Source of the DNA: Candidatus Marinacidobacterales bacterium
GTDB taxonomy: Bacteria; Acidobacteriota; Vicinamibacteria; Marinacidobacterales; SMYC01
Assembly (NCBI GenBank): GCA_965224085.1
Contig: CBDCYI010000009.1
Span: forward strand, 256,001 to 320,000
DNA: 64,000 nt
Reading direction: 5' to 3'
The position numbers and the translations under genes were made by a program. The notes under the pieces are model-generated. The model was not told the origin of the DNA. It worked only from the letters and a program-made list of their open reading frames with translations, and ran no database searches. Positions 37,588-55,964 of this stretch are shown piece after piece; positions within the stretch are counted from its first letter, which is position 1, and each line of letters opens with the position of its first letter.

Positions 37588-38142
37588 GTGGAAATGTCCA
37601 GCCGCGATGAGCTCGAGAGCTTGGCGGAACAAGCTCGACAAGGAAGCTCGGAGGCCTGGGCCGAACTCTATGAAGCCAATGCACCCGCGATATTCCGACT
37701 TTGCCGCCGAGCTCTCAACAACCGGCAAGACGCTGAAGACGCCACCGCCGCCGTCTTTCTCAAGGCAAGGATGCGCCTCAAACAATTTGACACTTCGCGA
37801 CCCTTCGCACCTTGGATCTATCGCGTCGCGGCGAACCACTGCTGGGACGAGCTGCGCAAGCGAAGAACCCACGGCGAGTGGGACGAGGCCGAATCGGAGC
37901 TCCAAAAACTGCAAGACGATGCCCCAACGCCTCAGCAGGCGGTTTTGCTCAACGAGACCAAACGGAACGTCCGGAACGCCATCGCCGAGCTCGACGAACG
38001 AGCTCGGCTCGCCGTCATCCTGCGGTACTTCGCCGACATGAGCTACGAAGAGATCGGCGATGTGCTCGGCATTTCGAGCAATTTCACAGGGGTTTTGTTG
38101 CTGCGAGCGCGGCGTCAAATGAGGACGAGGCTCAAACAGTGA
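37588..38142 (+). CDS. ECF sigma factor (RpoE/SigW-like)
   Basis: DAEDATAAVFLKA, FAPWIYRVAANHC, MSYEEIGDVLGI, LLRAR. Confidence 0.92.
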   Translation: MEMSSRDELESLAEQARQGSSEAWAELYEANAPAIFRLCRRALNNRQDAEDATAAVFLKARMRLKQFDTSRPFAPWIYRVAANHCWDELRKRRTHGEWDEAESELQKLQDDAPTPQQAVLLNETKRNVRNAIAELDERARLAVILRYFADMSYEEIGDVLGISSNFTGVLLLRARRQMRTRLKQ

Positions 38143-39767: not shown

Positions 39768-40231
39768 TGATTCGCACGATACAGGAATTCTTCCAACAAC
39801 GCATCATCACCGAACAAACGCCGGTGGTGTCGCTCGAGCGCGCGCTACAACTAGCGACAACCGCGCTCCTGATCGAGATTTCGCGTGCGGACTTCGAAGT
39901 CGCGGACGAGGAGCGTATCGCCATCGAAGAAGCTCTCACGCGTAGCTTTGGGCTCACTGAGGATGAAACACGTGAGATCATCGCCCTTGCCGAGGAGGAA
40001 GTCGACGCCTCGGTCTCGCTCTACGAGTTCACCCGCCTCGTCGATGACAGCTTCACCTACGAGCAGAAGAAACACATCATCGGGCTCTTGTGGCAAATCG
40101 CGTATAGCGACGATCGGCTCGAGGAGCACGAAGAACATCTGATCCGCAAGATCGCCAAGCTACTGCATATCGACCACAGCGACTTCATCGCCGAGAAGCT
40201 CAGGGCAAAGGAAGCCCAGGCGAGGACGTAA
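39767..40231 (+). CDS. TerB-family protein
   Basis: ALLIEISRAD...EERIAI, SLYEFTRLV, LWQIAYSD.RL..HEEHLIRKIAKLL. Confidence 0.88.
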   Translation: MIRTIQEFFQQRIITEQTPVVSLERALQLATTALLIEISRADFEVADEERIAIEEALTRSFGLTEDETREIIALAEEEVDASVSLYEFTRLVDDSFTYEQKKHIIGLLWQIAYSDDRLEEHEEHLIRKIAKLLHIDHSDFIAEKLRAKEAQART

Positions 40232-40427: not shown

Positions 40428-41495
40428 GGCGTTGTGCACGTAGTTCGCGATGTGGTCGCCTACCTCTTCGGTCGAGCGACCTTTGCCTTGAAGCGCTAAA
40501 TCGGACGTCATGTAGCCTTTCCCGAGGGCGGACGCGATGCCGCGCTCGACGGTGCGTGCCTCTTCCTCTAGCTCGAAGGTATAGCGGAGCATCATGGCTA
40601 GCGACGCAATAGCGCCTATCGGATTCGCGAGGCCTTTTCCCACGATATCCGGCGCTGAACCGTGGACGGGCTCGAACAGGCCAACCGCTCCTCCGAGGCT
40701 CGCGGACGGAAGCATGCCGAGCGAGCCGGCGAGCATAGAGGCCTCATCGCTCAAGATGTCTCCGAAAAGATTCGCCGTGAGCAGCACGTCGATGTTGGCC
40801 GGTTTGGCGACGAGCTCCATCGCGGCGCGATCGACGAGCATGTGCTCGAGCGTGACGCCGGGGTAGTCCTTCGCGACCTCGGTAACGACTTCGCGCCACA
40901 GCTTCGACGTCTCGAGCACGTTCGCTTTATCCACCGAGGTCACATGCCGGCGTCTTCGCTTCGCAGCTTCGAACGCGATGCGCGCGACGCGGACGATCTC
41001 CTTCGTATGGTATGTCAGCGTGTTGACCGCCTGCCGATCCTGCCCCAAGCCCGAGATGCCACGAGGCTCGCCAAAGTACAGCCCTCCGGTGAGCTCACGC
41101 ACGATCAGAAGGTCCACGCCCTCGAGCGTTTCTGGCTTAAAGGGTGACGTCGGCGAGACGAATTGCGAGATGACGGGACGCAGATTCGCAAAGCTCTCGA
41201 TCAATCGGCGCAGCTCGAGTAGTGCGAGCTCCGGTCGCTCGTTCGGAGGTAAGTGGTCGTGCCTCGGGTCGCCGACCGCACCGAGAAAAATCGCGGGGGC
41301 GCTCGTGCACGCCTCGCGCGTCTCGTCCGGAAATCCTTTGCCGGCAGCGTCGTAGCCGGCCGAGCCGAACGGATAAGGCGTCGTGTCGCTCTCGTGGCCA
41401 AACTTGGACGCCACCGCGTCCAAGGTCTTCATCGCCTCCGCGACCACTTCGGGGCCAATGCCGTCGCCAGGCAGAACCGTGATCATCAGTTTCAT
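40425..41495 (-). CDS. leuB: 3-isopropylmalate dehydrogenase
   Basis: LPGDGIGPEV, VRELTGGLYFG, VDKANVL, NLFGDILSDEAS, EPVHGSAPDI. Confidence 0.97.
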   Translation of the reverse strand: MKLMITVLPGDGIGPEVVAEAMKTLDAVASKFGHESDTTPYPFGSAGYDAAGKGFPDETREACTSAPAIFLGAVGDPRHDHLPPNERPELALLELRRLIESFANLRPVISQFVSPTSPFKPETLEGVDLLIVRELTGGLYFGEPRGISGLGQDRQAVNTLTYHTKEIVRVARIAFEAAKRRRRHVTSVDKANVLETSKLWREVVTEVAKDYPGVTLEHMLVDRAAMELVAKPANIDVLLTANLFGDILSDEASMLAGSLGMLPSASLGGAVGLFEPVHGSAPDIVGKGLANPIGAIASLAMMLRYTFELEEEARTVERGIASALGKGYMTSDLALQGKGRSTEEVGDHIANYVHNA

Positions 41496-41564
41496 GTGTG
41501 ATCTTTAACACGAAACGTTCGCGCGATTGACGGTAGATGGGAAAAGCTTCGAAAAACTTCCGCT

Positions 41565-41598
41565 AAATGAAGGCGGGGGGCGCCCGAAGGCGCCCCCC
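41565..41598 (-). terminator. GC hairpin with C(UUCG)G loop, probable terminator of the upstream ncRNA
   Basis: Minus strand GGGGGGCGCC-TTCG-GGCGCCCCCC then GCCTTCATTT (weak U tract). Confidence 0.6.
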
Positions 41599-41822
41599 TA
41601 TGATTCCAAAAGAACTGTTGCCAAGGATTATTTATGTGGAGTTGTTTAGGACGAGGTAAATGAAAAAGCAGGATAAAGTTGCGGGTTCGGTCGATGGATG
41701 GATAAGACCCGAGCTATGAGACACAGGCCTTTTGCGGACCCCTAGCGAACTGCTCGTCATGGAATCAACAAAGCGAGATCACTTTTTACTGTCCGATTAA
41801 TACTAATGTCGTGTTTAGGTAC
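41565..41822 (-). ncRNA. Candidate structured small RNA, ~250 nt
   Basis: Bounded by a sigma70 promoter and the UUCG hairpin. 41767-41740 pairs with 41626-41601 using G-U wobbles on the minus strand. AT-rich with no RBS-led ORF. Confidence 0.6.
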
Positions 41823-41826
41823 AGCA

Positions 41827-41856
41827 ATACTATAGGCGGCTTCCCTTTGGTGTCAA
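41827..41856 (-). promoter_or_regulatory. Sigma70-type promoter
   Basis: TTGACA (41856-41851) followed by N16-TATAGT or N18-TAGTAT. Confidence 0.75.
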
Positions 41857-42216
41857 GACGAAAAAGAAGAGGCGGGACCAAACCACGCCCAATTGACTAT
41901 CGATGAACGGTTTATCCGACAGGCGTCATTTCATACCGTAGATTTATGTAGGCGCTAGATCTTCCTTCCAATAATCAGAACCCGACTCAAACGGATGGCG
42001 CTTGATCTTCATTCGGCTTTTCGCGTAGTATTAGTGGCAGAGTTCGGGCTAATGCTAGTCCGGGCACCACAACCGGCACATCCACAACTGAAATCACGAT
42101 TCTCATATCGCGATAGCTATCTATCGAGGGGATGAGGCGACTTTGTCGCTTCGTCGCGCTGCCGCCACCCAACATCGCAAGCGGCAGTGGTTCGAAATGT
42201 CGAAAGGAGCGGAATC

Positions 42217-43032
42217 GTGCAGGAGTTTCTAGTAGCGGTCGTGGCCTTTCCCACGATCGTGTTCACGTTCGGTCTCGCGGTCGCCCTCCTCTACTGGCTC
42301 GTCGTGATCTTCGGCGCGCTCGACCTGGACTTTCTCGACAGCGCGCTCGGTCTCGACAGCATGGATGCCGCTCTCGACGGAGCGCTCGAATCGATCGACG
42401 GGATGGCAGACGGGGCCGTCGAAGGTGTGGTGGAATCGATCGATGGTGCGGTCGACGGCGCGGCGGAAGGCGCAGCGGACGCCGCTGATTCGGGAGATAC
42501 GAGCGACGGGGCCCGGCAGGGCGCCCTTTCCGGGCTCTTGAACATGATGGGTGTTCGCGGCGTTCCCATCACGGTCGTTGCGAGCTTCGTGCTGCTCTGG
42601 GCATGGATTATCAGCATGGTCGGCTCCAAATTGCTGGGCGCGGCGGCGGCGACGTTCCTCGTCGGCGGCTTTCTCACAGGATCATCGGTCCTCGGTTCGT
42701 TGGTCCTTGCGGCGGTCACCGCTCGGCCTTTCCGGAAAATCTTCGTGACACCCTCTGCGCCCAGTCGCGTTTCGCTCGTCGGAAAAATCTGTATCGTGAC
42801 TTCCGCGAAAGTCGACGGTGAGTTCGGCCGCGCCGAGATCGATGACGGCGCGACCGGTTTCGTCGCCGAAGTGCGATGCCCGCAGGACAACCAATTGACA
42901 CGAGGCGCCAACGCGCTCGTGTATCGCTACGACCCGGCCGACGGCGTCTTTTTCATTGGACCCGTCGACGATGCCTTGGCTACAGCATCGAATGTGGTCG
43001 ATTCACAGTCTGGCTCGATAGGGGGAGGATAA
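42217..43032 (+). CDS. YqiJ/NfeD-like membrane protein with C-terminal OB-fold
   Basis: FPTIVFT...YWLVVIFGALDLD, acidic loop, GVPITV, LVGKICIVTS.KVD.EFGRAEIDDG; RBS AAGGAG; abuts the flotillin gene. Confidence 0.8.
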   Translation: MQEFLVAVVAFPTIVFTFGLAVALLYWLVVIFGALDLDFLDSALGLDSMDAALDGALESIDGMADGAVEGVVESIDGAVDGAAEGAADAADSGDTSDGARQGALSGLLNMMGVRGVPITVVASFVLLWAWIISMVGSKLLGAAAATFLVGGFLTGSSVLGSLVLAAVTARPFRKIFVTPSAPSRVSLVGKICIVTSAKVDGEFGRAEIDDGATGFVAEVRCPQDNQLTRGANALVYRYDPADGVFFIGPVDDALATASNVVDSQSGSIGGG

Positions 43033-45081
43033 ATGTATTGGGTAATGGTCATTATCGCCGTCGGCGTGGGCGTGCTCATTCTGGGCATGGGCCTTTTGAT
43101 GCTCATCGCCAAGTTCTATCGCAAGGTAGAACAAGGCAAAGCGCTCGTCGTCAACAAGATGAAGCAAGAGCCTGAAGTCACGTTTACCGGCGCCACGGTG
43201 CTCCCCGTAATCCACAAGGCCGAGGTCATGGATATCTCGGTGAAGACACTCGAGATCGACCGGCGCGCGAAAGACGGACTGATCTGCCGTGACAACATTC
43301 GGGCCGACATCAAAGTCAACTTCTTCGTCCGCGTAAATAAACGCAAGGAAGATGTCATCAGAGTCGCGCAGTCCATCGGCTGCGCCCGCGCCTCATCTCC
43401 CGAAACGCTCGACGAGCTCTTCAGCGCCAAGTTCTCCGAAGCGCTGAAGACGGTCGGCAAGCAGCTCGACTTCGTCGACCTCTACACGAAGCGCGACGAA
43501 TTTCGCGACGCCATCATCCAGATCATCGGGCGCGACTTGAACGGCTACGCGCTCGAGGACGCGGCCATCGACTATCTCGAGCAGACCCCCCTCTCACATC
43601 TCGACCCGCAGAACATCCTCGACGCCCAAGGCATTCGCCGTATTACCGAGCTCACCGCGATCGAGCACATCCAAACGAACGAGTTCGAGAACAACGAGAA
43701 AAAAGCCATCACGAAACAGGACGTCGAGCGCGCAAAAGTCATCCTCGAGCTCGATCGCGAGCATGCGGACGCTGAGTCGAAGCAAAAGCGCGAGATCGAA
43801 TCGGTACGCGCGCGCGAATTGGCCGCGCTCCAGCAAGTCCAGGCGGAAGAGCGGCTCAAGTCCGAAACGGCGCGCATCAAGACGGACGAAGAAGTCCAGG
43901 TCGCCGAGGAGAACAAGAATCGCCAGGTCCAGGTTGCTGCCAAGAACCGCGAGCGCATTATTGGCGTCGAGACCGAGCGGGTCTTGAAAGACCGCCAGCT
44001 CGAACAGGTGGTCCGCGAACGTGAAGTCGAGCTCCAGCGCATCGACAAAGAGAAAGCGCTCGAAGTCGAGCGAAAAGAGATCCAGGACGTTATCCGCGAA
44101 CGCGTCGCTGTCGAGCGCACCGTTGTCGAGGAACAGGAGCGCATCAAAGAGCTCCAGGTCGTCGAGGAGGCCAAGCGCACCAAGCAGGCCACCATCATTA
44201 CGGCCGAGGCCGAAGCGGAAGAAGCCCTCGTCAAGGACATCAAAGCCGCCGAGGCCCAGGAGCAGGCTGCGAAGCACAAAGCCGTCGAGCGCATCACCCT
44301 CGCCGACGCCCAGCTCGAGGCCGCCGACCGCGACGCAAAAGCCAAGATCCGTCTCGCGGAAGGTACCCAGGCGGAAGCCGCAGCCGAAGGGCTCGCGGCC
44401 GCGAGGGTCAAAGAGGCCGACGCCGTCGCCTCCGAGAAGCACGGCCTCGCTGAAGTCCGGGTCCAGGAAGCGCAAGCGGGCGCTATCGAGCAAGTCGGCA
44501 CCGCGGAAGCGACCGTGGTTCGCGAGAAAGGCGTCGCCGAGGCGCACACCATCCAGCAGAAGTTCGGCGCTGAGGCGAAAGGCCTCGCGGAAAAAGCCGA
44601 GGCGATGAAAGCGCTCGACAAAGACAGCCGCCAGCACGAGGAGTACCGCATCCGCCTCGAGAACGAGCGCCTGCTCGGTCTCGAAGCGATCCAAGCGCGC
44701 GAAGCCGTCGCCGCGCACAAAGCCCAGGTCCTCTCCAAAGCGCTCGAGTCGGCGGATATCGACATCGTCGGCGGCGACGGTGTCTTTCTCGACCGCATGG
44801 TGAATTCCATCAGCATGGGCAAGGGCGTCGACGAGCTCGTCGATCAAAGCGACGTCATCTCCGGGCTCGCCAAAGACTATTTCAATGGCGACAAGAACAT
44901 CATCAAAGAGATCCGTCAGATCATGAAGGATTCCGGCATCGACGGAGGCATGCTCAAGGACATCACCATCGGGGCGCTTCTGACGAAGATCGCTACCGAT
45001 ATGGGAGGAGACGATCACGAAAAACTGAAGAAGCTTCAACGGCAAGCCAAAGCCTTGGGCATCGACGACGTTCGGCTATAA
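43033..45081 (+). CDS. Flotillin/SPFH protein (YqiK-like) with long coiled coil
   Basis: N-terminal TM, GLICRDNIRADIKVNFFVRV, NILDAQGIRRI, AEA-rich repeats, IDIVGGD. Confidence 0.92.
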   Translation: MYWVMVIIAVGVGVLILGMGLLMLIAKFYRKVEQGKALVVNKMKQEPEVTFTGATVLPVIHKAEVMDISVKTLEIDRRAKDGLICRDNIRADIKVNFFVRVNKRKEDVIRVAQSIGCARASSPETLDELFSAKFSEALKTVGKQLDFVDLYTKRDEFRDAIIQIIGRDLNGYALEDAAIDYLEQTPLSHLDPQNILDAQGIRRITELTAIEHIQTNEFENNEKKAITKQDVERAKVILELDREHADAESKQKREIESVRARELAALQQVQAEERLKSETARIKTDEEVQVAEENKNRQVQVAAKNRERIIGVETERVLKDRQLEQVVREREVELQRIDKEKALEVERKEIQDVIRERVAVERTVVEEQERIKELQVVEEAKRTKQATIITAEAEAEEALVKDIKAAEAQEQAAKHKAVERITLADAQLEAADRDAKAKIRLAEGTQAEAAAEGLAAARVKEADAVASEKHGLAEVRVQEAQAGAIEQVGTAEATVVREKGVAEAHTIQQKFGAEAKGLAEKAEAMKALDKDSRQHEEYRIRLENERLLGLEAIQAREAVAAHKAQVLSKALESADIDIVGGDGVFLDRMVNSISMGKGVDELVDQSDVISGLAKDYFNGDKNIIKEIRQIMKDSGIDGGMLKDITIGALLTKIATDMGGDDHEKLKKLQRQAKALGIDDVRL

Positions 45082-45099
45082 CGGAAGGCTCACGTAATC

Positions 45100-48000
45100 A
45101 TGAGCACGGACGTACAACAACAACCCGAGATCGAGCGCGGCACTTACGAGATCATCCGGGACCGCTTGCTCGGCCACGGCAAGACACTCGCCGAGAAAGC
45201 CGATGGACTCAACAGGAAACGCCTCGAGATCTTCGGAGGCACCGAGCTCGCGGTCCTGGGCAACGAGCGCATCCGGACCGAGAACAACTGCATCCCGCGC
45301 GACATCAAGGAGGTGGGTAACCACCTCCTGTTCGGCTATAACGTTTTCATCGGCCTCAAGCGCGAGACTCGCGTTGAGGACGTTTTCAGCCTTCACAGCT
45401 ACGAGAAGACGGAGGACGGCTTCGTTTTTCGCAAAGTCGAAAAAAACTCTCCCGACTACTTTCTCTCGGACGTGAAATTTCTAGAGGAGTTCCACGAGCT
45501 CTATCACTATTACAAGAACACCAAGCTCCTCCAGCTGAGACGGGTCAGCGAGAAGCTTCTCGCGGTATTCCAAATTGGCGAGAAGATCGAGGACGTGCGC
45601 GTGTTCCGCTGGGCCATCTCCACCGACGGCGCGGTTACCTATATCGACAACCGCGGCGAGCGCGACCACGTTTTCCCTCGGACCCATGACTTCGAATGGA
45701 CGCTCACAGCGCGTGAAGAGCACGTGCAGGGCCGTCACCCGCACGTCAACATTCTCGACGAAGTTTTCGTCGAGACCGTCGGCGGCGATCTCACGATCAA
45801 GGTCGAGAACAACACCGAAGACGGCCAGGGTATCTATCGCGAGCCGGTGCTCGACGCCGACCAATCTTTGGACGACGCGGAAGTCCACTACGCAGAAGTG
45901 GGCACGCTCATTCTTCTGAAGATGCTCCCCTACCGCGAAACGGATTACCGATATCTCGTCTTCAACACGCGCACCAATCACGTCGATCGCATCGACGCCA
46001 TCGGCCAATCCTGCGTACAGCTTCCCGAGGACCACGGCGTCATCTTTCCGGGCGGCTACTACCTGAAGAGCGGCCACACAAAGTCCTTCGAGCGCGATTT
46101 CCGCGGGATGGAGTTCCTGAGACGTCTGCGCTCCCCGAACGGCGAAGACGTCCTTTACGCGTTTCACGAGCGTGAATCTGGGCGCACGATCCTACTTCCG
46201 TACAACATGATCCGGAAGGAGGTCGACAACCCGCTCAATTGCCACGGCTTCAGCCTCTATCCCGACGGCACGCTCGTCGTGTTCCGCGCTGGCGACGACG
46301 AGCCCAAACGCGTCCATGGGATGCAAGTCTGGCGCACGCCCTTCTTGAGCGAAGAGGCGGTGCAGTCGCGGCCGCCCACCGGCTCGTTCCTCGAGAAAGT
46401 GGGCAATGCCGAGCTCGTGCGCGGCGTCTCCGACTGCTTGAGCATTCGCCGCATGGTCGACGAGCAGGAGCCGACGCGGCAGAAATACGAGGACCTCGTC
46501 GCGGCGGCGGCACGCGTCATCGACAGCTATTACTGGCTCGACAACCCCGAGATTGGAGACCTGCGCGAGCCGCTCCGGAACGTTCACGAGTCCGCCGAGA
46601 GCATCATCGACGAGTTCGAAAAAGTCGAAGCGCTAAGGGCGCAAGCGAGAAGGACTCTCGACGAGGCCGGCGAGAAGGTCCAGGAGATCTTCCGAACCAT
46701 TTATCCCGATTCCTGGACCTCGATCGACCAATATGTCGCCTGTCTCGCGAGCTTACGCTCGGCGCGCGGGCACCTCATTACGCTCCGCGAAACACGCTAT
46801 GTCGATCTCGCCCGAATCGACACGGTCGAAGCGGAGATTGTCGAGCGCTTCGATAATGTCAGCGAGCGCGCCGTCGAGTTTCTTCTGCAAGACGAAGCAC
46901 TACTTCCCTATCAAGAACGCGCGGGCGCGCTCGAGGACGGTGTTCCCGGCCTCTCGAAAGTTACCGAGGCGAACGCCCATCAAGACGCCCTCCAAGAGTT
47001 CGGCGACAGTCTCGATCTCTTGACCGATGTGGTCAGCTCGCTCGAGATCGACGACGCCACGGTCCGCACGCAGATTCTCGGGAACATCTCGGAGATCTTG
47101 GGAAGCCTCAACCGCGTCCGTGCGCTCATCACCAACCGGCGCAAAGAGCTTCTCGGCAAAGAAGGCATCGCTGAGTTCGGCGTGCAATTCCAGCTTTTGA
47201 GCCAAAGCGTAACGAGCGCTCTATCTCTCTCCGACACGCCCGAGAAATGTGACGAACAGCTCTCGAAGCTCATGCTCCAGCTCGAAGATCTGGAAACCCG
47301 TTTCTCCGAGTACGAAGAGTTCACGGACGAGCTCACGACCAAGCGCGAGGAAATCTACGAGGCGTTCAGCTCGAAGAAGCAGTCCCTTGTCGACCGGCGC
47401 CAGCGCCGCGCGCAAAACTTGATGCAGGCCGCCGAGCGTATTCTAGGAAGTGTGACGCGGCGCGCGGAGACGTTCGAGACCGCCGACGACCTGAACGCCT
47501 ATTTCGCTGCTGACGCGATGGTCGCCAAGCTCCGGAGCACGTCAAACAATTTGCGAGAGCTCGGCGACTCTGTCCATGCCGACGAGATCGACGGCCGACT
47601 CAAAGCCGCCAAAGAAGACGCCGCCCGCGGACTTCGCGACCGCCAGGAGATCTACGAGGACGGCGCCAACGTCATCAAGCTCGGCAGGCACCGCTTCAGC
47701 GTCAACACTCAGCCTCTCGAGCTCACCATGGTGCCTCGCGACGACGCCATGGCCTTTCATCTCACCGGCACCGGCTTCTACGAGCAGGTCGACGATGAGA
47801 CCTTCGGAAAAACGCAGGATTTCTGGTCGCAAGAGCTCGTTTCCGAAACGCGTTCAGTCTATCGGGGCGAATATCTGGCCTATTGCGTGCTCGAAGACGC
47901 AGAGCTCGGAGATTCCGAGTTGTCGCTCAAGAAGCTCCTCCAAGCCACCCGCGGCGAAGGGGCGCTTCTGGGCATCATACGCGACTATGCGGCTCTGAGA

Positions 48001-50472
48001 TATGACGAGGGGTATGAGCGCGGCCTCCACGACGCCGACGCGACGCTGATCTTGCAAAAGATCCTGGGCATGCACGAGACCGCGGATCTGCTTCGCTTCA
48101 CCCCGAACGCGCGCGCACTGGCTACCGTTTTCTGGGCGCTCTACGACGACCGGAAAAAGCGCGCGGCCTGGGAAAGCCAAGCTCGCAGCCTCGTCCGCCT
48201 CCGCACCCAATTCGAGCACACGGAGGCGATGACGGAGCTCGGTGGCGAGCTCAACGAAGCGATCGCGACCCATCTCGCCGAGATCGGGATCGATGTGCCG
48301 ACGCAGGCGTCCCGTCTAGCCGGCGCCTACCTGCTCGAAGAGATCGCGCGCGAGCCGCAGAAATTCGTCCTGAGCGCGGATGCAAACGAGCTCAAGCGCG
48401 CTTTCGAAAAGCACTTGCGTGAGTCCGGCGGCGACCGCGAGCTCGAACAGGACTTGCGCGCGCTCAGCGACACGCCCGTGCGCGCTTACGAGCTCACGGA
48501 GGCGTGGATGGCCGCCTTTCTCTCGAGCTCGGAAAACGGCGATCGCTTGGCTCGCTCTTCCCTCGAGGCCGTCGTCGCGCTTCTTTTCGAAGACAAAGTG
48601 AGCCGAGACACCTCGAGCGCGCAGTCCAAAGTCACGGTCGAGGGGCTCCTTGGCCAGCACCCCCGCATGCCGCAAGGCCGTATGGAGCTCCATCTAGACG
48701 AATTCCTCTCGCGGCTCGGCCATTTTCGACATCGACAAGTCAGAGGCTTCAGAGAGTTCCAAAAAGCCCGCCACGACGTGCTCGAGCACGAGCGTGAGAA
48801 TCTACGTCTCGACGAGTACAAGCCCAAGGTCATGTCGTCTTTCGTGCGCAACCGGCTCATCAACGACGTGTATCTACCGCTCATCGGCGACAACCTCGCG
48901 AAACAGATGGGGGCTCTCGGCGACGCCAAGCGCACCGACCTCATGGGGATGCTTCTCCTCATCTCACCTCCGGGCTACGGCAAGACGACTTTGATGGAGT
49001 ACCTCGCCAACCGGCTCGGCCTCGTCTTCATGAAGATTAACGGCCCCGCCCTCGGCCACTCGGTCACATCGCTAGATCCAGGCGAAGCACCGAACGCCAC
49101 CGCGCGCCAGGAGGTCAACAAGCTCAACCTCGCTTTCGAGATGGGCAACAACGTCCTTCTCTACATCGACGACATCCAGCACACCCATCCCGAATTTCTC
49201 CAGAAATTCATCTCGCTCTGCGACGCACAGCGAAAAGTGGAAGGTGTTTGGAAAGGTCGGACGCGCACTTACGATCTGCGCGGCAAGAAGTTCGTCGTGT
49301 GCATGGCGGGAAACCCTTACACGGAATCCGGCGAAAAATTCCAAATCCCAGACATGCTCGCGAACCGCGCCGATACCTACAATCTAGGCGACATCCTCGA
49401 AGGCAAAGACGACTTCTTCGCGCTTTCCTACATCGAGAACGCGCTCACGTCGAACGCCGTCCTCGCGCCCCTCACGACGCGCGAGCAAAGCGATATCGAG
49501 TTGCTCGTGCGCATGGCGAATGGCGAGGCGATTCAAGCGGATCAGTTGAAGCACGGCTACTCCGCCGTCGAGATCGGCGAGATCCAGTCCGTTTTGAAGA
49601 AGCTTCTCAAAGTCCAGCAGGTGCTCCTCGCGATCAACCAGCAATATATTCGCTCGGCGTCGCAAGAAGACGCCTATCGCACCGAGCCGCCTTTCAAGCT
49701 CCAGGGGAGCTACCGCAACATGAACAAGCTCGCTGAGAAGATCGTGGCCGCGATGAACGACGACGAGCTCGAAAGCCTCATCGACGACCACTATCTCGGC
49801 GAATCGCAGACTTTGACGACGGGCGCCGAAGAGAACCTTCTCAAGCTTGCCGAGATGCGCAGCCGGATGAGCGAGAGCCAGAAGGCACGCTGGGAGGAGA
49901 TCAAAAGCGGTTTCGTTCGAGTGCAACGCATGGGGGGCGGCGACGACGACCCCGCGACGAGGCTCACGGGACAGCTCAGCCTGGTCTCCGAGCATCTCGA
50001 AGACATCGGTCAGAGCATCGAGCGCGCCGCCTCGAGTGCTGCTTCTCGCCCGCAAGCGATCTCGGCGGATCCCGACCTCAGCGCGTTCACCGCGCGGGAC
50101 GTCGAGGTCAAGCTCGACCTCGCTCCCTATATCGACAAGCTCCACGAGCTTCTCGAGGCCTTCCAGAACGGGCAAACACAACTCGCCGCCGCACCGCAGA
50201 TCAAGGGCGAGGCCCAGGCGCCGCCAGCGGATTACGAGCTCATCTCACGCGAGTCCTACCTCATCGAAGGCACCCTCATCCCGTTGATGCGCTTCATGGC
50301 GCATCGCTTCCGGGGCTATCGCGGGGTGGACGACCCGAAAATCAAAGCGCTCATACAGAGACTCGAATATGTCGACGATCTCCAGGAGCTCGTCAACGCG
50401 CTCGAGAAAATCAACGTCTCCGCCCTCTCGAACATAACCGACGAAGAGGAGACGGACGAGGCCTCGACATGA
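45100..50472 (+). CDS. 1790-aa coiled-coil AAA ATPase (family often labelled 'DNA repair ATPase', DUF3686-like)
   Basis: GTYEIIRDRL, RTENNCIPRD, SPNGEDVLY, Walker A PPGYGKT, Walker B LYIDDIQH, MAGNPYTESG. Confidence 0.85.
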   Translation: MSTDVQQQPEIERGTYEIIRDRLLGHGKTLAEKADGLNRKRLEIFGGTELAVLGNERIRTENNCIPRDIKEVGNHLLFGYNVFIGLKRETRVEDVFSLHSYEKTEDGFVFRKVEKNSPDYFLSDVKFLEEFHELYHYYKNTKLLQLRRVSEKLLAVFQIGEKIEDVRVFRWAISTDGAVTYIDNRGERDHVFPRTHDFEWTLTAREEHVQGRHPHVNILDEVFVETVGGDLTIKVENNTEDGQGIYREPVLDADQSLDDAEVHYAEVGTLILLKMLPYRETDYRYLVFNTRTNHVDRIDAIGQSCVQLPEDHGVIFPGGYYLKSGHTKSFERDFRGMEFLRRLRSPNGEDVLYAFHERESGRTILLPYNMIRKEVDNPLNCHGFSLYPDGTLVVFRAGDDEPKRVHGMQVWRTPFLSEEAVQSRPPTGSFLEKVGNAELVRGVSDCLSIRRMVDEQEPTRQKYEDLVAAAARVIDSYYWLDNPEIGDLREPLRNVHESAESIIDEFEKVEALRAQARRTLDEAGEKVQEIFRTIYPDSWTSIDQYVACLASLRSARGHLITLRETRYVDLARIDTVEAEIVERFDNVSERAVEFLLQDEALLPYQERAGALEDGVPGLSKVTEANAHQDALQEFGDSLDLLTDVVSSLEIDDATVRTQILGNISEILGSLNRVRALITNRRKELLGKEGIAEFGVQFQLLSQSVTSALSLSDTPEKCDEQLSKLMLQLEDLETRFSEYEEFTDELTTKREEIYEAFSSKKQSLVDRRQRRAQNLMQAAERILGSVTRRAETFETADDLNAYFAADAMVAKLRSTSNNLRELGDSVHADEIDGRLKAAKEDAARGLRDRQEIYEDGANVIKLGRHRFSVNTQPLELTMVPRDDAMAFHLTGTGFYEQVDDETFGKTQDFWSQELVSETRSVYRGEYLAYCVLEDAELGDSELSLKKLLQATRGEGALLGIIRDYAALRYDEGYERGLHDADATLILQKILGMHETADLLRFTPNARALATVFWALYDDRKKRAAWESQARSLVRLRTQFEHTEAMTELGGELNEAIATHLAEIGIDVPTQASRLAGAYLLEEIAREPQKFVLSADANELKRAFEKHLRESGGDRELEQDLRALSDTPVRAYELTEAWMAAFLSSSENGDRLARSSLEAVVALLFEDKVSRDTSSAQSKVTVEGLLGQHPRMPQGRMELHLDEFLSRLGHFRHRQVRGFREFQKARHDVLEHERENLRLDEYKPKVMSSFVRNRLINDVYLPLIGDNLAKQMGALGDAKRTDLMGMLLLISPPGYGKTTLMEYLANRLGLVFMKINGPALGHSVTSLDPGEAPNATARQEVNKLNLAFEMGNNVLLYIDDIQHTHPEFLQKFISLCDAQRKVEGVWKGRTRTYDLRGKKFVVCMAGNPYTESGEKFQIPDMLANRADTYNLGDILEGKDDFFALSYIENALTSNAVLAPLTTREQSDIELLVRMANGEAIQADQLKHGYSAVEIGEIQSVLKKLLKVQQVLLAINQQYIRSASQEDAYRTEPPFKLQGSYRNMNKLAEKIVAAMNDDELESLIDDHYLGESQTLTTGAEENLLKLAEMRSRMSESQKARWEEIKSGFVRVQRMGGGDDDPATRLTGQLSLVSEHLEDIGQSIERAASSAASRPQAISADPDLSAFTARDVEVKLDLAPYIDKLHELLEAFQNGQTQLAAAPQIKGEAQAPPADYELISRESYLIEGTLIPLMRFMAHRFRGYRGVDDPKIKALIQRLEYVDDLQELVNALEKINVSALSNITDEEETDEAST

Positions 50473-50493
50473 ACGCGCTAGACCTGCGCGCCA

Positions 50494-50502
50494 TGTTACG
50501 AT
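50494..50502 (+). promoter_or_regulatory. Possible extended -10 promoter for pspA-AAA-ykgJ
   Basis: TGnTACGAT in the 61-bp gap, upstream of RBS AAGGGAG. Confidence 0.4.
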
Positions 50503-50533
50503 TCCCAAAACCGGTTCTCACCGAAGGGAGTTC

Positions 50534-51292
50534 GTGATGGGGTTATTCGAGCGGATCCGAGCGGTCTGGTACGCCATAATCAACAAATCCGTCACTGAGA
50601 TGGAGGACGCGCACGTGATCGCACTCGCGGAGCACAAGCTCCAGCAGGCCACCGAGCGACTGAAAGAGGCGCGCCAAGGCTTGATCAGCTATCAAGCACT
50701 CGTTTTGAAAGTCGAAGGGCAAGTCGGAAGCGAAAAGTCGCGCATCGCGAGCGTCACCGGGCAGATCAAGAACCACTTGAAGGCCAATCAGGAAGAGATG
50801 GCCGGCCAGCTCGCTCTCGAGCTCGCTCGGGTCAAAGGCGAGCTCGAAAGCAACACCGAGCAGCTCGCACAACATCGCGAGAGCTACGAGAACAACCTTC
50901 TGAAGATGAAAGCGGCGCTCAAGGACATCGAGACGGCCAAGCAGGACCTCGACAAGAAGAAAGCCGCGCTTCAGATGGAGAAGGCTTTGGCCGAAGTCTC
51001 CGAGACCGCCGGCGCGCTCAACACCCAGTTCGATGTTTCTTCCGACATCGGCTCGATCCTGAGCCGCGTCGACGACCAGATCAATAAAGCCAAAGCGCGC
51101 TCGAAGGTCGCCTCCGATCTGAGCGATCAAGGCATCGATCAGCTCAAAGCGAAGCAATCGGCAGACAAGGCCGAAGCTCAGGAGCTTCTCGCGCAGTTCA
51201 AGATCGAGCAGGGGCTCGCCGAGCCGTCTTCAGAAGCAAGTGAGAAAACTGTAGGACCGCAGAGAGAAGCCACGCCAGAGTCCGGTGAATAG
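50534..51292 (+). CDS. PspA/IM30 (ESCRT-III-like) family protein
   Basis: Amphipathic MGLFERIRAVW N-terminus, all-helical coiled coil of ~250 aa, LALELAR, KARSKVASDL, C-terminal AQELLAQFK helix. Confidence 0.8.
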   Translation: MMGLFERIRAVWYAIINKSVTEMEDAHVIALAEHKLQQATERLKEARQGLISYQALVLKVEGQVGSEKSRIASVTGQIKNHLKANQEEMAGQLALELARVKGELESNTEQLAQHRESYENNLLKMKAALKDIETAKQDLDKKKAALQMEKALAEVSETAGALNTQFDVSSDIGSILSRVDDQINKAKARSKVASDLSDQGIDQLKAKQSADKAEAQELLAQFKIEQGLAEPSSEASEKTVGPQREATPESGE

Positions 51293-53006
51293 CCCTTTGG
51301 GAAGCGGCGCGCCCACTTGGGCGCGGGAGCTTGCCTCGAGCTATGTCAGTGGGGCTGCAAGCGTCTTCCTTCTCTATGGAAACGTCCACGACCTCGTTCC
51401 GGTCACGGACTCGGACGAGTTCATCTCGCTCGACGACTATCTCGCCACGCAGCTCTTCGGCCAACGGGACATCGTTCTCGCCTACGATCGCGGTAGCGGC
51501 ATCCGCTTTCTCGCTCCCGGGGATGCCGACCGTCGGGCGTCCATGCAAGAGGACTTTTACAAGACGCTCAAAGCCGTGGACTCGGTAAGCGGCACAAGCT
51601 TCGCGAGCTCGAGGCCTAAAGATCCCAAAGTCGTGTTCGAGCTCCTCGACCGCTACATCCTCCACAAGCTCGTCGAAACGCCTGCAGACGGCAATCGCAA
51701 GAGCCTCGCGATCGTGATCTGCTATGTCGAGACCATCACGCCGGCCGTCGATGGCTCGTGGCTCACGGGCGAGCTCGGCGCCAACCTCATCAAAGTGCTC
51801 AATTGGGCCAACGACCCTGGGATTCGAAGCGCTGATGTGACGCTTTGTCTCGTCACGGAGAACCTCGGCGACGTAAACCGCCGCCTCGTCGAGAACCCAT
51901 TCATCTCTAAAGTAGACGTCGAGCTCCCGGACGAGACGACGCGTGAGCGCTACGCGAGGCATTTGTTGAAAGACGCAGCAATGGCGAAGACGGTGGCCCG
52001 TGAAGGCAACGGGCTGACGCTCGTCGGTCTCGCACAGGCGGTCAGTGGCTCCGTCGAGCTCGCCAATTTGCAAGCGGCCAAAAAGGAGCTCATCGAGAAA
52101 CAGTGCTTCGGCCTCGTCGAGTTCGTTGCTCCGAGCTACGACCTCGACATGGTTGTCGCGCCCGAGGCAGTCAAAGACCGCCTCGAGCAAGACGTGTCGC
52201 TATTCAAGAAGGGACGGCTCGAAGCGCTCCCGATGGGCTATCTCCTCTGCGGGGTCATCGGCACCGGCAAGACATTTACGGCAACATGCTTTGCAGGAAG
52301 CCTCGGCATCCCAACGATCGTCTTCAAGAACCTCCGCAGCAAGTGGGTCGGAAGCTCCGAAGGCAATCTCCAAAAAGTGCTCTCGGTGATCAAAGCCCTC
52401 GGCCCCGTCGTCGTCGTCGTCGATGAAGCCGATGCCGCGCTGGGAAGCCGCGGGTCGAGCGGGGACAGCGGCACGTCGAGCCGCATGTTCGCGATGATCT
52501 CGTCACTCATGAGCGACACCGGTTACCGGGGGCGCATCCTGTGGATGCTCCTCACTTGCCGTCCTGACATGTTGCCCGTCGATTTGAAGCGGCAAGGTCG
52601 CTGCGAGGTCCACATCCCGCTCTTCCCGCCCGAGACTGAGAAGGCCCGCCACCAAATGTTTCTCGCGATGGCGCGCACAAACGGCGTCGCGATCGCTCCC
52701 AGCGACGTTCCCACCCTGCCGGAAGAGCTCTCGGGCGCGGACATCGAAAGTCTGCTCGTGCAATGCGTCCGCCGCGCCGCGATCGCGGGCGCTGCTTCGC
52801 TCTCCGCCGCGCATATCCGTGACACGCTTGCCCACTTTCGATCACCGGATTATGGTCTCGAGAAGGAGCTGCAGCAGCTCGTCGCCATCCGCGAGAGCAC
52901 CGACCCCAACTTCATCCCAAAGCGACTGCGAACGCGTTACGGAGCGCCGGACAAGGCGATAGCCCTCGAGCACCGCATTCAGGAGATCGCAGCACTTCTC
53001 CAATGA
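51285..53006 (+). CDS. Classical-clade AAA ATPase (degenerate N-terminal AAA-like domain plus one active domain)
   Basis: FLLYGNVHD N-domain; GVIGTGKT, SKWVGSSEGNL, VVDEAD, LKRQGR; overlaps the pspA stop. Confidence 0.88.
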   Translation: MNSPLGSGAPTWARELASSYVSGAASVFLLYGNVHDLVPVTDSDEFISLDDYLATQLFGQRDIVLAYDRGSGIRFLAPGDADRRASMQEDFYKTLKAVDSVSGTSFASSRPKDPKVVFELLDRYILHKLVETPADGNRKSLAIVICYVETITPAVDGSWLTGELGANLIKVLNWANDPGIRSADVTLCLVTENLGDVNRRLVENPFISKVDVELPDETTRERYARHLLKDAAMAKTVAREGNGLTLVGLAQAVSGSVELANLQAAKKELIEKQCFGLVEFVAPSYDLDMVVAPEAVKDRLEQDVSLFKKGRLEALPMGYLLCGVIGTGKTFTATCFAGSLGIPTIVFKNLRSKWVGSSEGNLQKVLSVIKALGPVVVVVDEADAALGSRGSSGDSGTSSRMFAMISSLMSDTGYRGRILWMLLTCRPDMLPVDLKRQGRCEVHIPLFPPETEKARHQMFLAMARTNGVAIAPSDVPTLPEELSGADIESLLVQCVRRAAIAGAASLSAAHIRDTLAHFRSPDYGLEKELQQLVAIRESTDPNFIPKRLRTRYGAPDKAIALEHRIQEIAALLQ

Positions 53007-53512
53007 AAGACGGCCTCGTTCGCAGACAAGTCAAGCGCATCGGCCTCGGCGTCTTCCACGCGCGTCTGTTTCTTCACCGCCTTCAGGCCGACACGCGTTA
53101 CGAGCTCGGCGGCGAGTGCATCCGCTGCGGCAAATGTTGCTTGGAGCCAGGAATTCAAGTCGGCCGCATCGCTTGGTACCTCCCCGGCTGCCGGCGGGTC
53201 TTTCTCTGGTGGCACCGAGTTGTCAACGGCTTCACGCTCAAGGAGGCCCGGCGGGAAGACCGCGTGTTCATTTTTGAGTGCAGCCATTTCGACTGGGCGT
53301 CGCGGAGCTGCGACAGCTACCACTCCCGGCCCGGAATGTGCCGCGACTACCCGCGCCTGTTCCTCGAACAGGCCAACCCCGAGTTTTTCGACGAGTGCGG
53401 TTTCAAAGCGCTCGCTCGAGGCCGGGACAGCCTCATCCAAATTCTCGAGAAAGAATCTCTTACGCCGCAGCAGCTGGCCAAGCTGAAAAAAGGCCTTTAT
53501 CTCGAAGATTGA
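53003..53512 (+). CDS. YkgJ-family cysteine-cluster (Fe-S/Zn) protein
   Basis: CIRCGKCC...CSHF...C..Y..RPGMCRDYP; ATGA overlap with the AAA gene. Confidence 0.85.
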   Translation: MKDGLVRRQVKRIGLGVFHARLFLHRLQADTRYELGGECIRCGKCCLEPGIQVGRIAWYLPGCRRVFLWWHRVVNGFTLKEARREDRVFIFECSHFDWASRSCDSYHSRPGMCRDYPRLFLEQANPEFFDECGFKALARGRDSLIQILEKESLTPQQLAKLKKGLYLED

Positions 53513-53622
53513 GATGAAAGGCTTGCTGCCGCGATTCGACTCGGTTACATTAGAGGTTGAGCCCTCTCCACACACAAGAAAGCCAAAGCTCTGCCGGCCT
53601 TGCTTAGGGGTGTCGGAACCGC

Positions 53623-54255
53623 ATGCGTAGACTGAAGATCCGGAGTTATCTCGCCACCGGTCTACTAGTCTGGATTCCGCTCGCCGTGACCCTCTTCGTC
53701 CTCCGGGTGCTGATAAATTTGATGGATCAGTCCCTCCTGCTGATCCCGCCGTCGTTGCGTCCTGAGAATCTATTGGGGTTCAGCATCCCGGGCCTGGGCG
53801 TCATTCTCACGTTCACGCTCGTCACCGTGACCGGTTTTTTGGCCGCGAACTTTCTCGGCAAACGGCTATTGGCGACCTCGGAAGGGCTTCTCGCACGTAT
53901 CCCGCTTGTGAGCTGGGTCTATTCCGGCGTAAAGAAGGTGGCGGAAACGCTCTTGTCGCCGACGAGCGAGTCGTTTCGCAAAGTGCTCCTGATGGAGTAC
54001 CCTCGCAAAGGCATCTGGAGCGTCTGCTTTCAAACGTCGAGCGAGCTTGGCGAGATACAGATTCGTACGGGGAAGGAAGTGCTCTGCGTGTTCGTCCCCA
54101 CGACCCCGAACCCCACCTCTGGTTTCGTCATTTTCGTTCCCCGCGATGAGGTCATCGAGCTCGATATGACGGTCGACCAAGCATTGAGGATGATCATCTC
54201 GCTCGGCGTCGTGGTTCCCGAGTGGCGCCGCCGCGAGCTCATGCCGGTAGGTTGA
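53623..54255 (+). CDS. DUF502 membrane protein
   Basis: TGLLVWIPLAVT, RIPLV..VYSGVK, VFVPTTPNPTSGF. Confidence 0.92.
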   Translation: MRRLKIRSYLATGLLVWIPLAVTLFVLRVLINLMDQSLLLIPPSLRPENLLGFSIPGLGVILTFTLVTVTGFLAANFLGKRLLATSEGLLARIPLVSWVYSGVKKVAETLLSPTSESFRKVLLMEYPRKGIWSVCFQTSSELGEIQIRTGKEVLCVFVPTTPNPTSGFVIFVPRDEVIELDMTVDQALRMIISLGVVVPEWRRRELMPVG

Positions 54256-54452
54256 GCGCGATTCAGGGTTCCGCAATTCGGCGCGACGGCGACTAAACGC
54301 CCGGACGCCATAGGTACGCGATCCCAGCGACGGGAATTACCGCTCCCGCACTATCGCGGGACGCGAAGAGACGATCCGTCCTCTAGCCTGGCCGGAACTA
54401 GAAATACACACCGGCGATTTGCTTCCGTAGTGCGACCACGTCGCCCCACCGC

Positions 54453-55964
54453 CTATGGGGACCCGCCGACCAAGCTCAGGAAATCCGTCATCGGAACGAT
54501 GCGTCCGTGGACGGGCACGATCGTCTCAACGTCTAGGTTCAGCCGCTCTATGTTCTCGTAGAAGGTCACGTTGCTGGCATTGGGGCTCGCTGCCGGTGCG
54601 CCACGCGGCGAGTAGACGTCCGCCTCCATCACGATCTTTTCCTTCGGCAGATAGGCGATCAACATCCCCGCGACGTGAGCGAGACCTTGAACATGATGGA
54701 TTTCCATCGTGCGCACCCCGTCGCTCAAGACGTATTTCTCCCGTAACGTTTCGAACGTGTAGCCTTCCGCGGCCTCTTCCGGCGGATAGAGGGAGAGACG
54801 GTCCGGCTCCAAAATCCATGGACGCGCCGTCAAGATCTCTTCGTAATAAGCGCGATTGCCCTCGTGGCCAATGATGGTCGCGCCCTCGTGGACATAGGCG
54901 CGCATGCCGCCCAAGTGGTCCCAGTGGTGATGCGAGTTCACCAAGAAGCCGATCGGCTTTCCCGGAATGAGCTTTTGCACTTCCTCGATGACCGCGAGCG
55001 AGCGGCTTCCGTTTAAAGGGGCCTCGAAGACCACCGAGTAGTCCTGGAACTCGACGACGACGCTGTTGTGCGACGAGCCTCCCAGATACCACACCCCGTC
55101 CGCCAGCTCTCTCGAATCCACCCGGCGCGGTGGAACGGTTGCCCCCCGCACGGCGGCGGGGACGCTCGGAGCGGCGCCACTCACGTTCGCCTGAACGTCG
55201 CTCACGACGAGCCCAAAGGAATGGTCGCCGCCGCTGACGTTCGGTTTGCGCTCATTGTCGTCGTAATCGTGATGCTGGTGGAAACGGGTGGGAAACTTCA
55301 CCCCGTCGAAGTCGCGGTAGTCGGCATACATGGTCTCATAGTACATATCGCCGACGATGGGGTTGGGGATCCAGGTCTGAATTCGGACGACCTGGTTCTC
55401 GCTGTTGAATGTAGCGTTAACCCGGTACTTGCCGAGCGCTTCGAAGGAGACGATGGTCACGCGCTCTCCGTATTCTTCCCGCGAAATAGCGGTCGGGATC
55501 CCCACCATCGCTGCTTTGATGAAGCCGTGCGGGGTGAGCCAGATCTCGAGCTGTCGGACCTCCGCGGCAGCGGGCCTCGGAACCACATTGTCTCCTTGCA
55601 GGTTCCAAGCGAATGCGCCGCTCACGACGAACACCTCCCGCCGTTCCCCGACGATCGGCGTCCTGCCGCCGCCTCGTGAGCTGTAATTCCCCTGAACCCG
55701 GACCGTCTCTTCCTTCGAGCTCTTTGCCTCGAAGTCGATGGTCCGGGTGTAGCTCTTTACTTCGGTCCGCGGCCAATCCAGTTCCGGGCTGTAGTTTTGG
55801 CCCACCGCCCCTTTCCAACCGGTCCCGGAATAGCGAATCGATCTCAGGTTGGCGACACCTAACTCCTCTGCCGCGGCCCGCAAGACGTTGTGGGCATCTT
55901 GGGCGGCGACCGTCGCGGCCATAAAAACCAGCACGGCACCCAAAGCCAAACGCGTGTCTCTCAT
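54453..55964 (-). CDS. Secreted MBL-fold metallo-hydrolase
   Basis: Signal peptide; VNSHHHWDHLGG, AHVAGML, IVPVHG. Confidence 0.88.
   Translation of the reverse strand: MRDTRLALGAVLVFMAATVAAQDAHNVLRAAAEELGVANLRSIRYSGTGWKGAVGQNYSPELDWPRTEVKSYTRTIDFEAKSSKEETVRVQGNYSSRGGGRTPIVGERREVFVVSGAFAWNLQGDNVVPRPAAAEVRQLEIWLTPHGFIKAAMVGIPTAISREEYGERVTIVSFEALGKYRVNATFNSENQVVRIQTWIPNPIVGDMYYETMYADYRDFDGVKFPTRFHQHHDYDDNERKPNVSGGDHSFGLVVSDVQANVSGAAPSVPAAVRGATVPPRRVDSRELADGVWYLGGSSHNSVVVEFQDYSVVFEAPLNGSRSLAVIEEVQKLIPGKPIGFLVNSHHHWDHLGGMRAYVHEGATIIGHEGNRAYYEEILTARPWILEPDRLSLYPPEEAAEGYTFETLREKYVLSDGVRTMEIHHVQGLAHVAGMLIAYLPKEKIVMEADVYSPRGAPAASPNASNVTFYENIERLNLDVETIVPVHGRIVPMTDFLSLVGGSP

Follow-up and report, generated by a model that had tools for sequence, protein, structure and literature searches.

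The 64,000-nucleotide stretch of Candidatus Marinacidobacterales DNA analysed here (the window) contains six genes coding for an NfeD-like membrane protein, a flotillin-like SPFH protein, a giant AAA+ ATPase, a PspA/IM30 protein, a tandem AAA+ ATPase and a Cys-cluster protein of the YkgJ type. The locus probably consists of two separable membrane-stress modules, the NfeD–flotillin–giant ATPase trio (module A) and the PspA–AAA+ pair (module B), which lie in one co-directional array between leuB and a resident ykgJ–DUF502 gene pair. The two modules are found apart from each other, the PspA and tandem AAA+ genes are also linked outside the family to which the window belongs, and PspA-family genes are repeatedly joined to the trio. 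The modules may also be in physical contact and cooperate in the repair of damaged membrane; functional cooperation is plausible, the case for it and the case against it being about evenly balanced.

All six genes are intact frames on the + strand in the list of open reading frames (ORFs). In gene order they are separated by 0, 18 and 61 nucleotides (nt) and then overlap by 8 and 4 nt. An earlier note on this DNA had described six co-directional, tightly packed genes; this description is correct, all of its gene identifications hold (by Pfam, by a Band_7 match on residues 1-220 of the flotillin-like protein and by context), and the membrane-stress or membrane-remodelling role that it suggested is a sensible reading. 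The features are as follows (aa, amino acids):

42187..43032, + strand: NfeD-like gene (module A, gene 1), 281 aa, GTG start, with an in-frame alternative start at 42217
43033..45081, + strand: flotillin-like SPFH gene (module A, gene 2), 682 aa
45100..50472, + strand: giant AAA+ gene (module A, gene 3), 1790 aa
50473..50533, + strand: spacer between modules A and B, 61 nt
50534..51292, + strand: PspA/IM30 gene (module B, gene 1), 252 aa
51285..53006, + strand: tandem AAA+ ATPase gene (module B, gene 2), 573 aa
53003..53512, + strand: CxxCxxCC (YkgJ/YcgN-like) Cys-cluster gene, 169 aa, its start overlapping the AAA+ stop by 4 nt
53623..54255, + strand: DUF502 membrane protein gene (PF04367 at 115 bits), conserved beside ykgJ in the family by synteny

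The ATG at 50537, which is preceded by the Shine-Dalgarno-like GAAGGGAG, is the likelier start of pspA. A promoter and terminator scan of 41400-54600 gave the same counts as shuffled sequences and had no hit in the 61-nt spacer, where no terminator-like hairpin was found; the spacer also has no homology to the ~200-nt region that lies upstream of pspA in relatives devoid of the trio. With neither such a hairpin nor a counterpart of that upstream region in the spacer, co-transcription of the PspA–AAA+ pair with the trio is likely.

Separation and joining of the two modules

The phylum of the window was sampled by 401 genomes, with E 1e-3 as the threshold throughout; all counts given below describe genome samples, not all genomes, and relatives are not independent observations. 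DUF3686, the family of the giant ATPase, was found in 10 of the 401 genomes, scattered over families. Eight of the nine other hits were compared, the ninth being a fragment at a contig end: seven have the NfeD–flotillin–giant order and the eighth is cut at the giant gene by the end of its contig. No relative of PspA, the tandem AAA+, YkgJ or DUF502 was found near the trio in these eight loci (the best weak match has E 0.061), and the genes 3' of the giant vary among them, with histidine kinases, a GGDEF protein and a GNAT protein. In one of the loci (L009:2221-2799, genome G022) nfeD and the complete flotillin gene are separated by an additional Band_7 fragment of 192 aa, 39% identical to the flotillin N-terminus, which looks like a partial duplication.

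Across species-representative genomes 581 relatives of the giant ATPase were confirmed, and the cross-phylum counts rest on the best 80 of them, whose record titles include Actinomycetota, Myxococcota, Gammaproteobacteria, Planctomycetota and Acidobacteriota. The flotillin gene adjoins the giant in 77 of the 80 loci, the three misses starting at a contig end, which bears out the statement of the earlier note that this ATPase recurs beside flotillins, and an NfeD homologue lies directly upstream of the flotillin in 69. Relatives of the PspA, YkgJ and DUF502 of the window are present in none of the 80, and the tandem AAA+ family in two, as a partial generic match in locus L087 and as a full-length relative in L130. 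ORF calling in the high-GC loci was noisy, with many antisense artefacts, and only clusters of neighbours with at least three members were interpreted.

The PspA–AAA+ pair has a different distribution. The 573-aa ATPase family occurs in 64 of the 401 phylum genomes (E 1e-20 or better), including six of the nine other genomes with the trio, always on a different contig, and the trio is found in none of the 40 AAA+ loci of the phylum that were fetched. An ABC transporter set lies beside the AAA+ gene in 21 of the 40 loci; it is made of a permease, an ABC ATPase and a 570-aa solute-binding protein (SBP) that bears an OmpA domain. Most of these 21 loci also carry a protein of ~290 aa adjoining the AAA+, and the genes are usually arranged as pspA–SBP/OmpA–permease–ABC–290aa–AAA. 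PspA itself was recognized in 21 of the 40, several loci ending before its expected place, by a locally iterated profile whose scores are inflated by training on its own hits and by coiled-coil sequence, one representative of each class being checked by Pfam or hhalign. In two of the loci (L024 and L033) no gene separates pspA from the AAA+ gene, as in the window. Outside the family the closest relative, G033 (AAA+ 57% and PspA 64% identical), carries the complete transporter version. The ABC transporter set is absent from the window locus, and queries with the SBP-OmpA and 290-aa proteins of G033 gave no match in the genome of the window. Because relatives have the transporter version and these queries found nothing, the pair of the window is regarded as a reduced form of a PspA–ABC transporter–AAA+ operon. 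Four middle genes are missing by comparison with that operon, with the result that pspA overlaps the AAA+ gene in the window's family, and the pair sits behind a flotillin trio.

The ~290-aa protein, which is without a convincing Pfam family, lies between the ABC ATPase and the tandem AAA+ genes (L015:4078-4959, + strand; L013:6816-7685, - strand; and homologues). Its gene is kept without the transporter in L014 and L032, in the order PspA–290aa–AAA.

Within the acidobacterial family of the window the locus exists in several states. The full NfeD–Flot–giant–PspA–AAA–YkgJ order was found by tblastn in G401, G402 and G403 (same genus), in G409 and in G410, where the giant matches in two pieces; DUF502 follows the full array where the contig allows, which is not the case in G409. 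Genome G412 has the trio, PspA and AAA+ without YkgJ, and G408 has giant–PspA–AAA on a 5.7-kb contig. In the genus g229 (G405, G414, G417 and G418) PspA–AAA–YkgJ–DUF502 occupies the same site, the trio is absent and no DUF3686 is found genome-wide. Both module B genes are unbroken in G417 and, to the end of the contig, in G414; PspA is frameshifted in G405, and both are fragmented in G418. The PspA–AAA+ pair can thus stand without the trio, which is the outermost layer of the stack.

Other members of the family show decay. In G415 the giant is in pieces, only residues 2-73 of PspA are left, AAA+, NfeD and flotillin are gone and YkgJ–DUF502 is kept; in G404 NfeD and flotillin are frameshifted and a deletion runs from residue 617 of the flotillin to residue 94 of YkgJ; in G406 PspA and AAA+ are stubs beside an intact YkgJ–DUF502. 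Decay is recurrent in close relatives (L159 of G404, L139 of G415, L157 of G406 and L137 of G410), by frameshifts, internal deletions and one large deletion. In G413, YkgJ–DUF502 stands alone downstream of leuB.

The Cys-cluster protein itself is matched by PF03692 (CxxCxxCC) at 26.5 bits (cut-off 23) and contains the CIRCGKCC motif. In G413 and G406 its gene and DUF502 are still present at the site, with no functional PspA–AAA+ pair; the gene is absent from the G412 locus, and no homologue was found in the 40 AAA+ loci or the 80 trio loci. YkgJ is a local neighbour and not part of a machine, and YkgJ and DUF502 are resident genes of the site downstream of leuB.

PspA-family genes are joined to the trio in other lineages too. 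A YjfJ-type PspA is encoded directly upstream of nfeD, and co-directional with it, in 14 of the 80 loci, all with gammaproteobacterial titles (Pfam 182 bits for the representative), and DUF2170/YjfI precedes it in 10 of these 14. In a lineage with Planctomycetota titles, represented by L130, genes for a PspA-like protein and for a tandem AAA+ of the same family as that of the window are divergent from nfeD–flot–giant, with which they share an intergenic region of ~140-380 nt. The PspA-like protein matches the profile of AAA-linked PspAs at 99.3% in hhalign, and the AAA+ is ~26% identical to that of the window. The divergent pair is present in three of the nine L130 relatives with room upstream and absent from six; four other DUF3686-positive relatives stand outside this count. 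Since orientation, position and sequence differ, the family array and the Planctomycetota case are regarded as independent. The PspA–AAA+ pair was thus attached to the trio on at least two separate occasions, in these two lineages, and genes of the PspA family on at least three, if the gammaproteobacterial YjfI–YjfJ(PspA)–trio operon is included.

Proteins of the two modules

The 281-aa protein contains three hydrophobic segments, an acidic linker and a β-rich C-terminal domain. No Pfam family matches it, including YqiJ_N, YqiJ_OB and NfeD, and one of its 28 homologues has a YqiJ_N match (E 9e-5). Its language-model neighbours in the ESM Atlas, at 0.92-0.94, carry YqiJ_N, YqiJ_OB or NfeD_TM and are taken as a lead only. 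This is a small multi-pass membrane protein whose gene comes immediately before an SPFH gene, its stop codon abutting the flotillin-like start, and the position, shared by 69 of the 80 loci, supports the putative YqiJ/NfeD-like label.

The 682-aa protein has no match as a whole in Pfam, NCBIfam or the PDB sequences. Residues 1-220 alone reveal a Band_7/SPFH domain (PF01145) at residues 31-175, with 45.6 bits (cut-off 23.6), which was probably hidden in the whole-protein scan by a long low-complexity helical region. The Flot domain (PF15975) does not score (E 0.67, 10.5 bits, cut-off 27). The N-terminal hydrophobic helix is followed by the Band_7 domain, a long helical stretch rich in Glu, Ala and Lys, and finally a C-terminal domain. 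The protein is 47-70% identical to the product of the gene that precedes the giant ATPase in 77 of the 80 loci. It is called flotillin-like because of its SPFH domain, its long coiled coil and its orthology to the band-7 plus flotillin proteins of Ravi et al.

The giant protein comprises DUF3686 (PF12458, 704 bits), DUF7902 (PF25472, 89 bits), a helical region and one C-terminal AAA+ module (residues 1285-1410, 31.5 bits). The Walker A motif PPGYGKT and the Walker B-like YIDDIQH are found in this module; PPGYGKT and IDDIQH are invariant in a set of 8 homologues, and the GYGKT and DDIQH cores in a set of 21 as well. The predicted fold of the C-terminal 591 residues (predicted local distance difference test, pLDDT, 70) gave weak Foldseek matches (best E 2e-4) to the AAA+ proteins RuvB, NorQ (template-modelling score to the target about 0.5), MCM and ClpA. 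Matches to RuvB-like proteins either cover no more than the P-loop region or amount to weak fold similarity. The 'DNA repair' label of the family, for which the earlier note had known no experimental basis, is Pfam's own description and is equally unsupported here: the constant neighbours of the giant are membrane proteins, and no mention of DUF3686 was found in the literature searched.

In module B, PspA is matched by PF04012 at 44.1 bits (cut-off 33.9), residues 3-226 aligning to positions 1-218 of the 220 in the profile. Its C-terminus reads FKIEQGL, a linker and EKTVGP. In AAA-linked PspAs this tail takes the form F/Y-x-x-x-x-G followed by a hydrophobic stretch, a Pro/Ala/Glu-rich linker and a final (K/R/Q)(T/E/D)(L/I/M/V)G(P/A/S), here called the K-T-h-G-P tail. 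It is present in the final 30 residues of 18 of the 23 PspAs linked to a tandem AAA+ and in none of 15 unlinked ones (the canonical PspA of the genome and 14 YjfJ-type proteins), a descriptive count, as the pattern was written after viewing the sequences on which it was counted.

The 573-aa ATPase (PF00004 at 74 bits) contains two AAA copies and no separate N-domain. The first copy is degenerate, with HGNVxD as the consensus where Walker A is absent, and the second is a classical-clade AAA domain with GxGKT and DEAD-type motifs. Its model (pLDDT 88.8, predicted template-modelling score 0.85) aligns over ~600 columns to the D1–D2 tandem of Afg2/Drg1, Cdc48/p97, Rix7 and NVL, with E down to 8e-21. 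The protein would therefore work like a type II AAA+ without being a Cdc48 orthologue, to judge from its domain make-up. It lies far below the family cut-offs for Cdc48, PAN, CdvC and IteA. Three identities were considered and rejected: Cdc48/VAT/p97 orthologue (TIGR01243 58.8 bits against a cut-off of 802.65, and no Walker A in the first copy); Vps4/CdvC (CdvC model 29.4 bits against 650, tandem AAA and no MIT-type domain); and IetA/IteA of the Ietas defence system (NF042959 48 bits against 510, no IetS or protease partner in the locus), the PADLOC IetA match of 51.9 bits being confined to the AAA domain. A complex prediction with full-length AAA+ and full-length PspA, both entered as alignments, scored 0.29 against a mark of 0.32 in a run without controls.

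Cooperation, coincidence and known systems

In a cooperative arrangement, the flotillin and its NfeD-type partner would build an oligomeric scaffold at the cytoplasmic side of the membrane, which the giant ATPase would remodel or load. The tandem AAA+ would engage the conserved C-terminal K-T-h-G-P tail of PspA, a polymer of ESCRT-III fold, and would then extract or disassemble PspA subunits, as Vps4 does for ESCRT-III. The earlier note had envisaged a scaffold, a polymer and two motors acting together; the repeated joining of PspA-family genes to the trio speaks for this idea, and the separability of the modules against their being one indivisible machine. Precedent for an SPFH protein working with PspA may be found in the PspA–YdjGHI system of Bacillus subtilis, where Scholz et al. 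are said to have described, in 2021, an SPFH protein that links PspA to the membrane; that system has an SPFH protein of another family, other partners and no ATPases.

A bolder interpretation, which we regard as doubtful, is that PspA and the tandem AAA+ represent the missing bacterial counterpart of ESCRT-III and Vps4, recycling PspA via its tail. Wired to the flotillin–giant scaffold, as in the window's family and the Planctomycetota lineage, the pair would complete an ATP-driven membrane-repair or vesiculation apparatus on flotillin-marked patches. As in the ESCRT-III–Vps4/CdvC systems, a polymer of the ESCRT-III superfamily is encoded beside a classical-clade AAA+, and the PspA tail, a short conserved C-terminus after a flexible linker, is in the position of the MIM motif of ESCRT-III; the ATPase of the window, however, is a Cdc48-like tandem, whereas Vps4/CdvC is an MIT domain plus a single AAA. 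According to the available part of a 2025 review (PMC7619361), an ATPase of the Vps4 type, regulating polymers like ESCRT-III, 'appears absent in bacteria'. The PspA clade described here, accompanied by a tandem AAA+ of its own and provided with a private tail, is a concrete candidate for such a role, and its repeated joining to the trio provides a genomic argument for flotillin scaffolds and PspA polymers acting on the same membrane lesions.

Several observations weigh against these interpretations. The tail count is descriptive, and the Planctomycetota PspA-like proteins do not have the K-T-h-G-P tail. The tandem AAA+ is not Vps4-like, being a tandem without an MIT-type domain, and the giant has a D-D and not a D-E Walker B, which, being invariant, is probably functional. 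Gene order is generally conserved in the family, leuB, TerB and the anti-sigma gene being syntenic as well, so that the retained adjacency of the modules counts as weak functional evidence. The site also looks like a place of gene gain and loss, and the stacking could therefore be accidental.

Taken to its conclusion, this last point would make the locus a chance stack of two unrelated accessory modules, placed in the same variable spot by leuB with no functional tie. The site does vary within the family (empty, module B only, A plus B, or decayed), the modules are unlinked in all six other phylum genomes that hold both, and the five genomes with the closest giant ATPases have the AAA+ family elsewhere. 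Against coincidence, the same modules are adjacent in the Planctomycetota lineage, in another orientation, with ~26% AAA+ identity and a shared divergent intergenic region, and in Gammaproteobacteria the trio is joined to a PspA of another clade. For a one-copy gene present in ~16% of genomes, adjacency within two genes of the trio would arise by chance in ~0.1 of some 600 species, a rough estimate and not a test, and at least two lineages are seen. This difference shifts the balance from accidental neighbours towards modules that would cooperate when both are present, and we consider chance stacking unlikely, if still a serious alternative to two membrane-stress modules with a functional tie.

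The earlier note had proposed a candidate membrane-remodelling machine, which in its strict form would be a single machine of six obligate components whose parts work only together. The packing is tight (a spacer of 61 nt, then overlaps of 8 and 4 nt), the order is kept in five family relatives with about 56-96% protein identity, and both modules decay or vanish together in G415 and G404. However, g229 keeps PspA–AAA–YkgJ without the trio, with both module B genes unbroken in two of four genomes, G412 lacks YkgJ and G413 has YkgJ–DUF502 alone. Outside one family, moreover, pspA–AAA–ykgJ is not linked to the trio in the 8 phylum, 80 cross-phylum and 40 AAA+ loci, in which this PspA or YkgJ accompanies 0 of 80 trios and the trio 0 of 40 AAA+ genes. 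The earlier note had staked its proposal on this linkage, and an obligate six-part machine is now very improbable. Conservation in close relatives together with tight packing is not sufficient to define a machine.

The anti-phage or envelope defence that the earlier note had also offered, here as an abortive-infection system using membrane proteins and ATPases, would fit the patchy accessory distribution of the trio (10 of 401 genomes over scattered families) and the weak AAA+ matches to IetA/IteA models (52 bits in PADLOC, 48 bits in NCBIfam), but it is rejected on these same scores and can be set aside almost entirely, since the 48 bits for IteA against a cut-off of 510 reflect generic AAA similarity with no IetS-type partner, PADLOC has no match for NfeD, flotillin or YkgJ and only P-loop-level matches for the giant, no defence genes flank the locus, and effectors of the nuclease, protease or pore type are absent.

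Both modules have been described as comparative-genomic predictions by Ravi et al. in 2024 (mSystems, PMC11237479), who, in the available part of their text, also suggest cooperation of the trio-type module with PspA homologues encoded elsewhere. Their CesT/Tir–PspA–YqiJ–flotillin–AAA+(–PLD) operon, as presented there (PLD, phospholipase D), has the same three trio genes in the same order as the window, and the 14 gammaproteobacterial loci with a YjfJ-type PspA upstream of nfeD are of this operon type. In the window, in contrast, PspA is downstream and not upstream, belongs to another PspA clade and has its own tandem AAA+, and there is no CesT/Tir (DUF2170) partner and no PLD; DUF2170 was not found among the window ORFs scanned, nor is there a DUF2170 plus YjfJ-type PspA upstream of the trio. 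The same part of the text describes PspA with a protein of two AAA+ domains, the N-terminal copy inactive, sometimes with an ABC ATPase, a permease and a PBPB-OmpA protein. The AAA+ of the window resembles that protein, being a tandem with a degenerate first copy, and its relatives carry the ABC/permease/SBP-OmpA set.

The other system for comparison is the Pseudomonas aeruginosa bacABCDEF operon, for which the available parts of the publications report the following. Its six genes are co-transcribed by reverse-transcription PCR (Wallart et al. 2024, PMC10948618); BacB is a PspA homologue and BacC a short NfeD (PMC10948618); bacD encodes the SPFH protein BacD/PaFlo3 (PMC13086221); a sigma-54 promoter has been proposed; and mutation of bacA or bacB has an effect on biofilm and virulence (PMC10948618, PMC13086221, PMC2587700). 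The Pseudomonas-titled loci of our set have the order DUF2170–PspA–NfeD–Flot–giant, with a rhomboid or PLD gene next downstream. From this gene order, bacE would encode the giant ATPase and the bac cluster would belong to the YjfJ–PspA–trio operon type. Unlike the window, bac, as far as it is described in these sources, has no second AAA+ and no YkgJ, and its PspA is of the YjfJ type with a DUF2170 partner. The view of the earlier note that no characterised locus has the full combination therefore stands for the second AAA+ and YkgJ, which bac lacks, and has to be qualified for PspA, NfeD and SPFH, which bac holds, and for the modules themselves, both described by Ravi et al. No biochemistry on either module was found in the literature searched, where genetics concerns only the upstream genes of the bac operon. 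New here are the repeated joining of the PspA–AAA+ pair to the trio and the private C-terminal tail of the AAA-linked PspAs; neither was found in the available part of the main text of Ravi et al., whose supplements may hold the joining.

Behind the giant, six of the gammaproteobacterial trio loci have a gene for a rhomboid protease and nine a PLD-like gene (examples are L110:7268-7837 and L100:17139-17834, with clusters in L092, L097, L099, L109, L121 and others). PLD is mentioned in the available part of the text of Ravi et al. (PMC11237479), and no mention of a rhomboid gene beside the trio was found there.

The site and its flanks

The locus has leuB, TerB, DUF502, an MBL-fold protein and an NHL-repeat protein as neighbours. 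On the 5' side of the trio there is a 690-nt intergenic region, followed by leuB on the opposite strand; an Rfam scan of the leuB–nfeD intergenic region gave no match. A stretch of ~145 nt upstream of leuB (41563-41711) is 75-77% identical in three g229 genomes. It contains a perfect 10-bp GC hairpin at 41575-41598, followed by a T-rich run, and a promoter-like TTGACA-16-TATAGT site (41856-41829, - strand, 11 of 12 matches) is located upstream of the hairpin. The 41563-41711 stretch could be a leader or attenuator of leuB.

Two syntenic genes, both present in relatives, code for a zf-HC2 anti-sigma-like protein (651 aa, 37812-39767, + strand) and a TerB-domain protein (313 aa, 39290-40231, + strand). 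As listed, they overlap by ~480 nt in different frames, and one start or ORF end is therefore miscalled in the mechanical ORF list.

Farther away, the region 2582-6561 (- strand) contains a large serine recombinase (Recombinase, Zn_ribbon_recom and HTH_17) beside two ORFs without an assigned family and an AAA_22/AAA_16 ATPase, possibly a mobile element ~36 kb upstream of the locus. It is followed by AddAB-like helicase-nuclease genes at 9493-16235.

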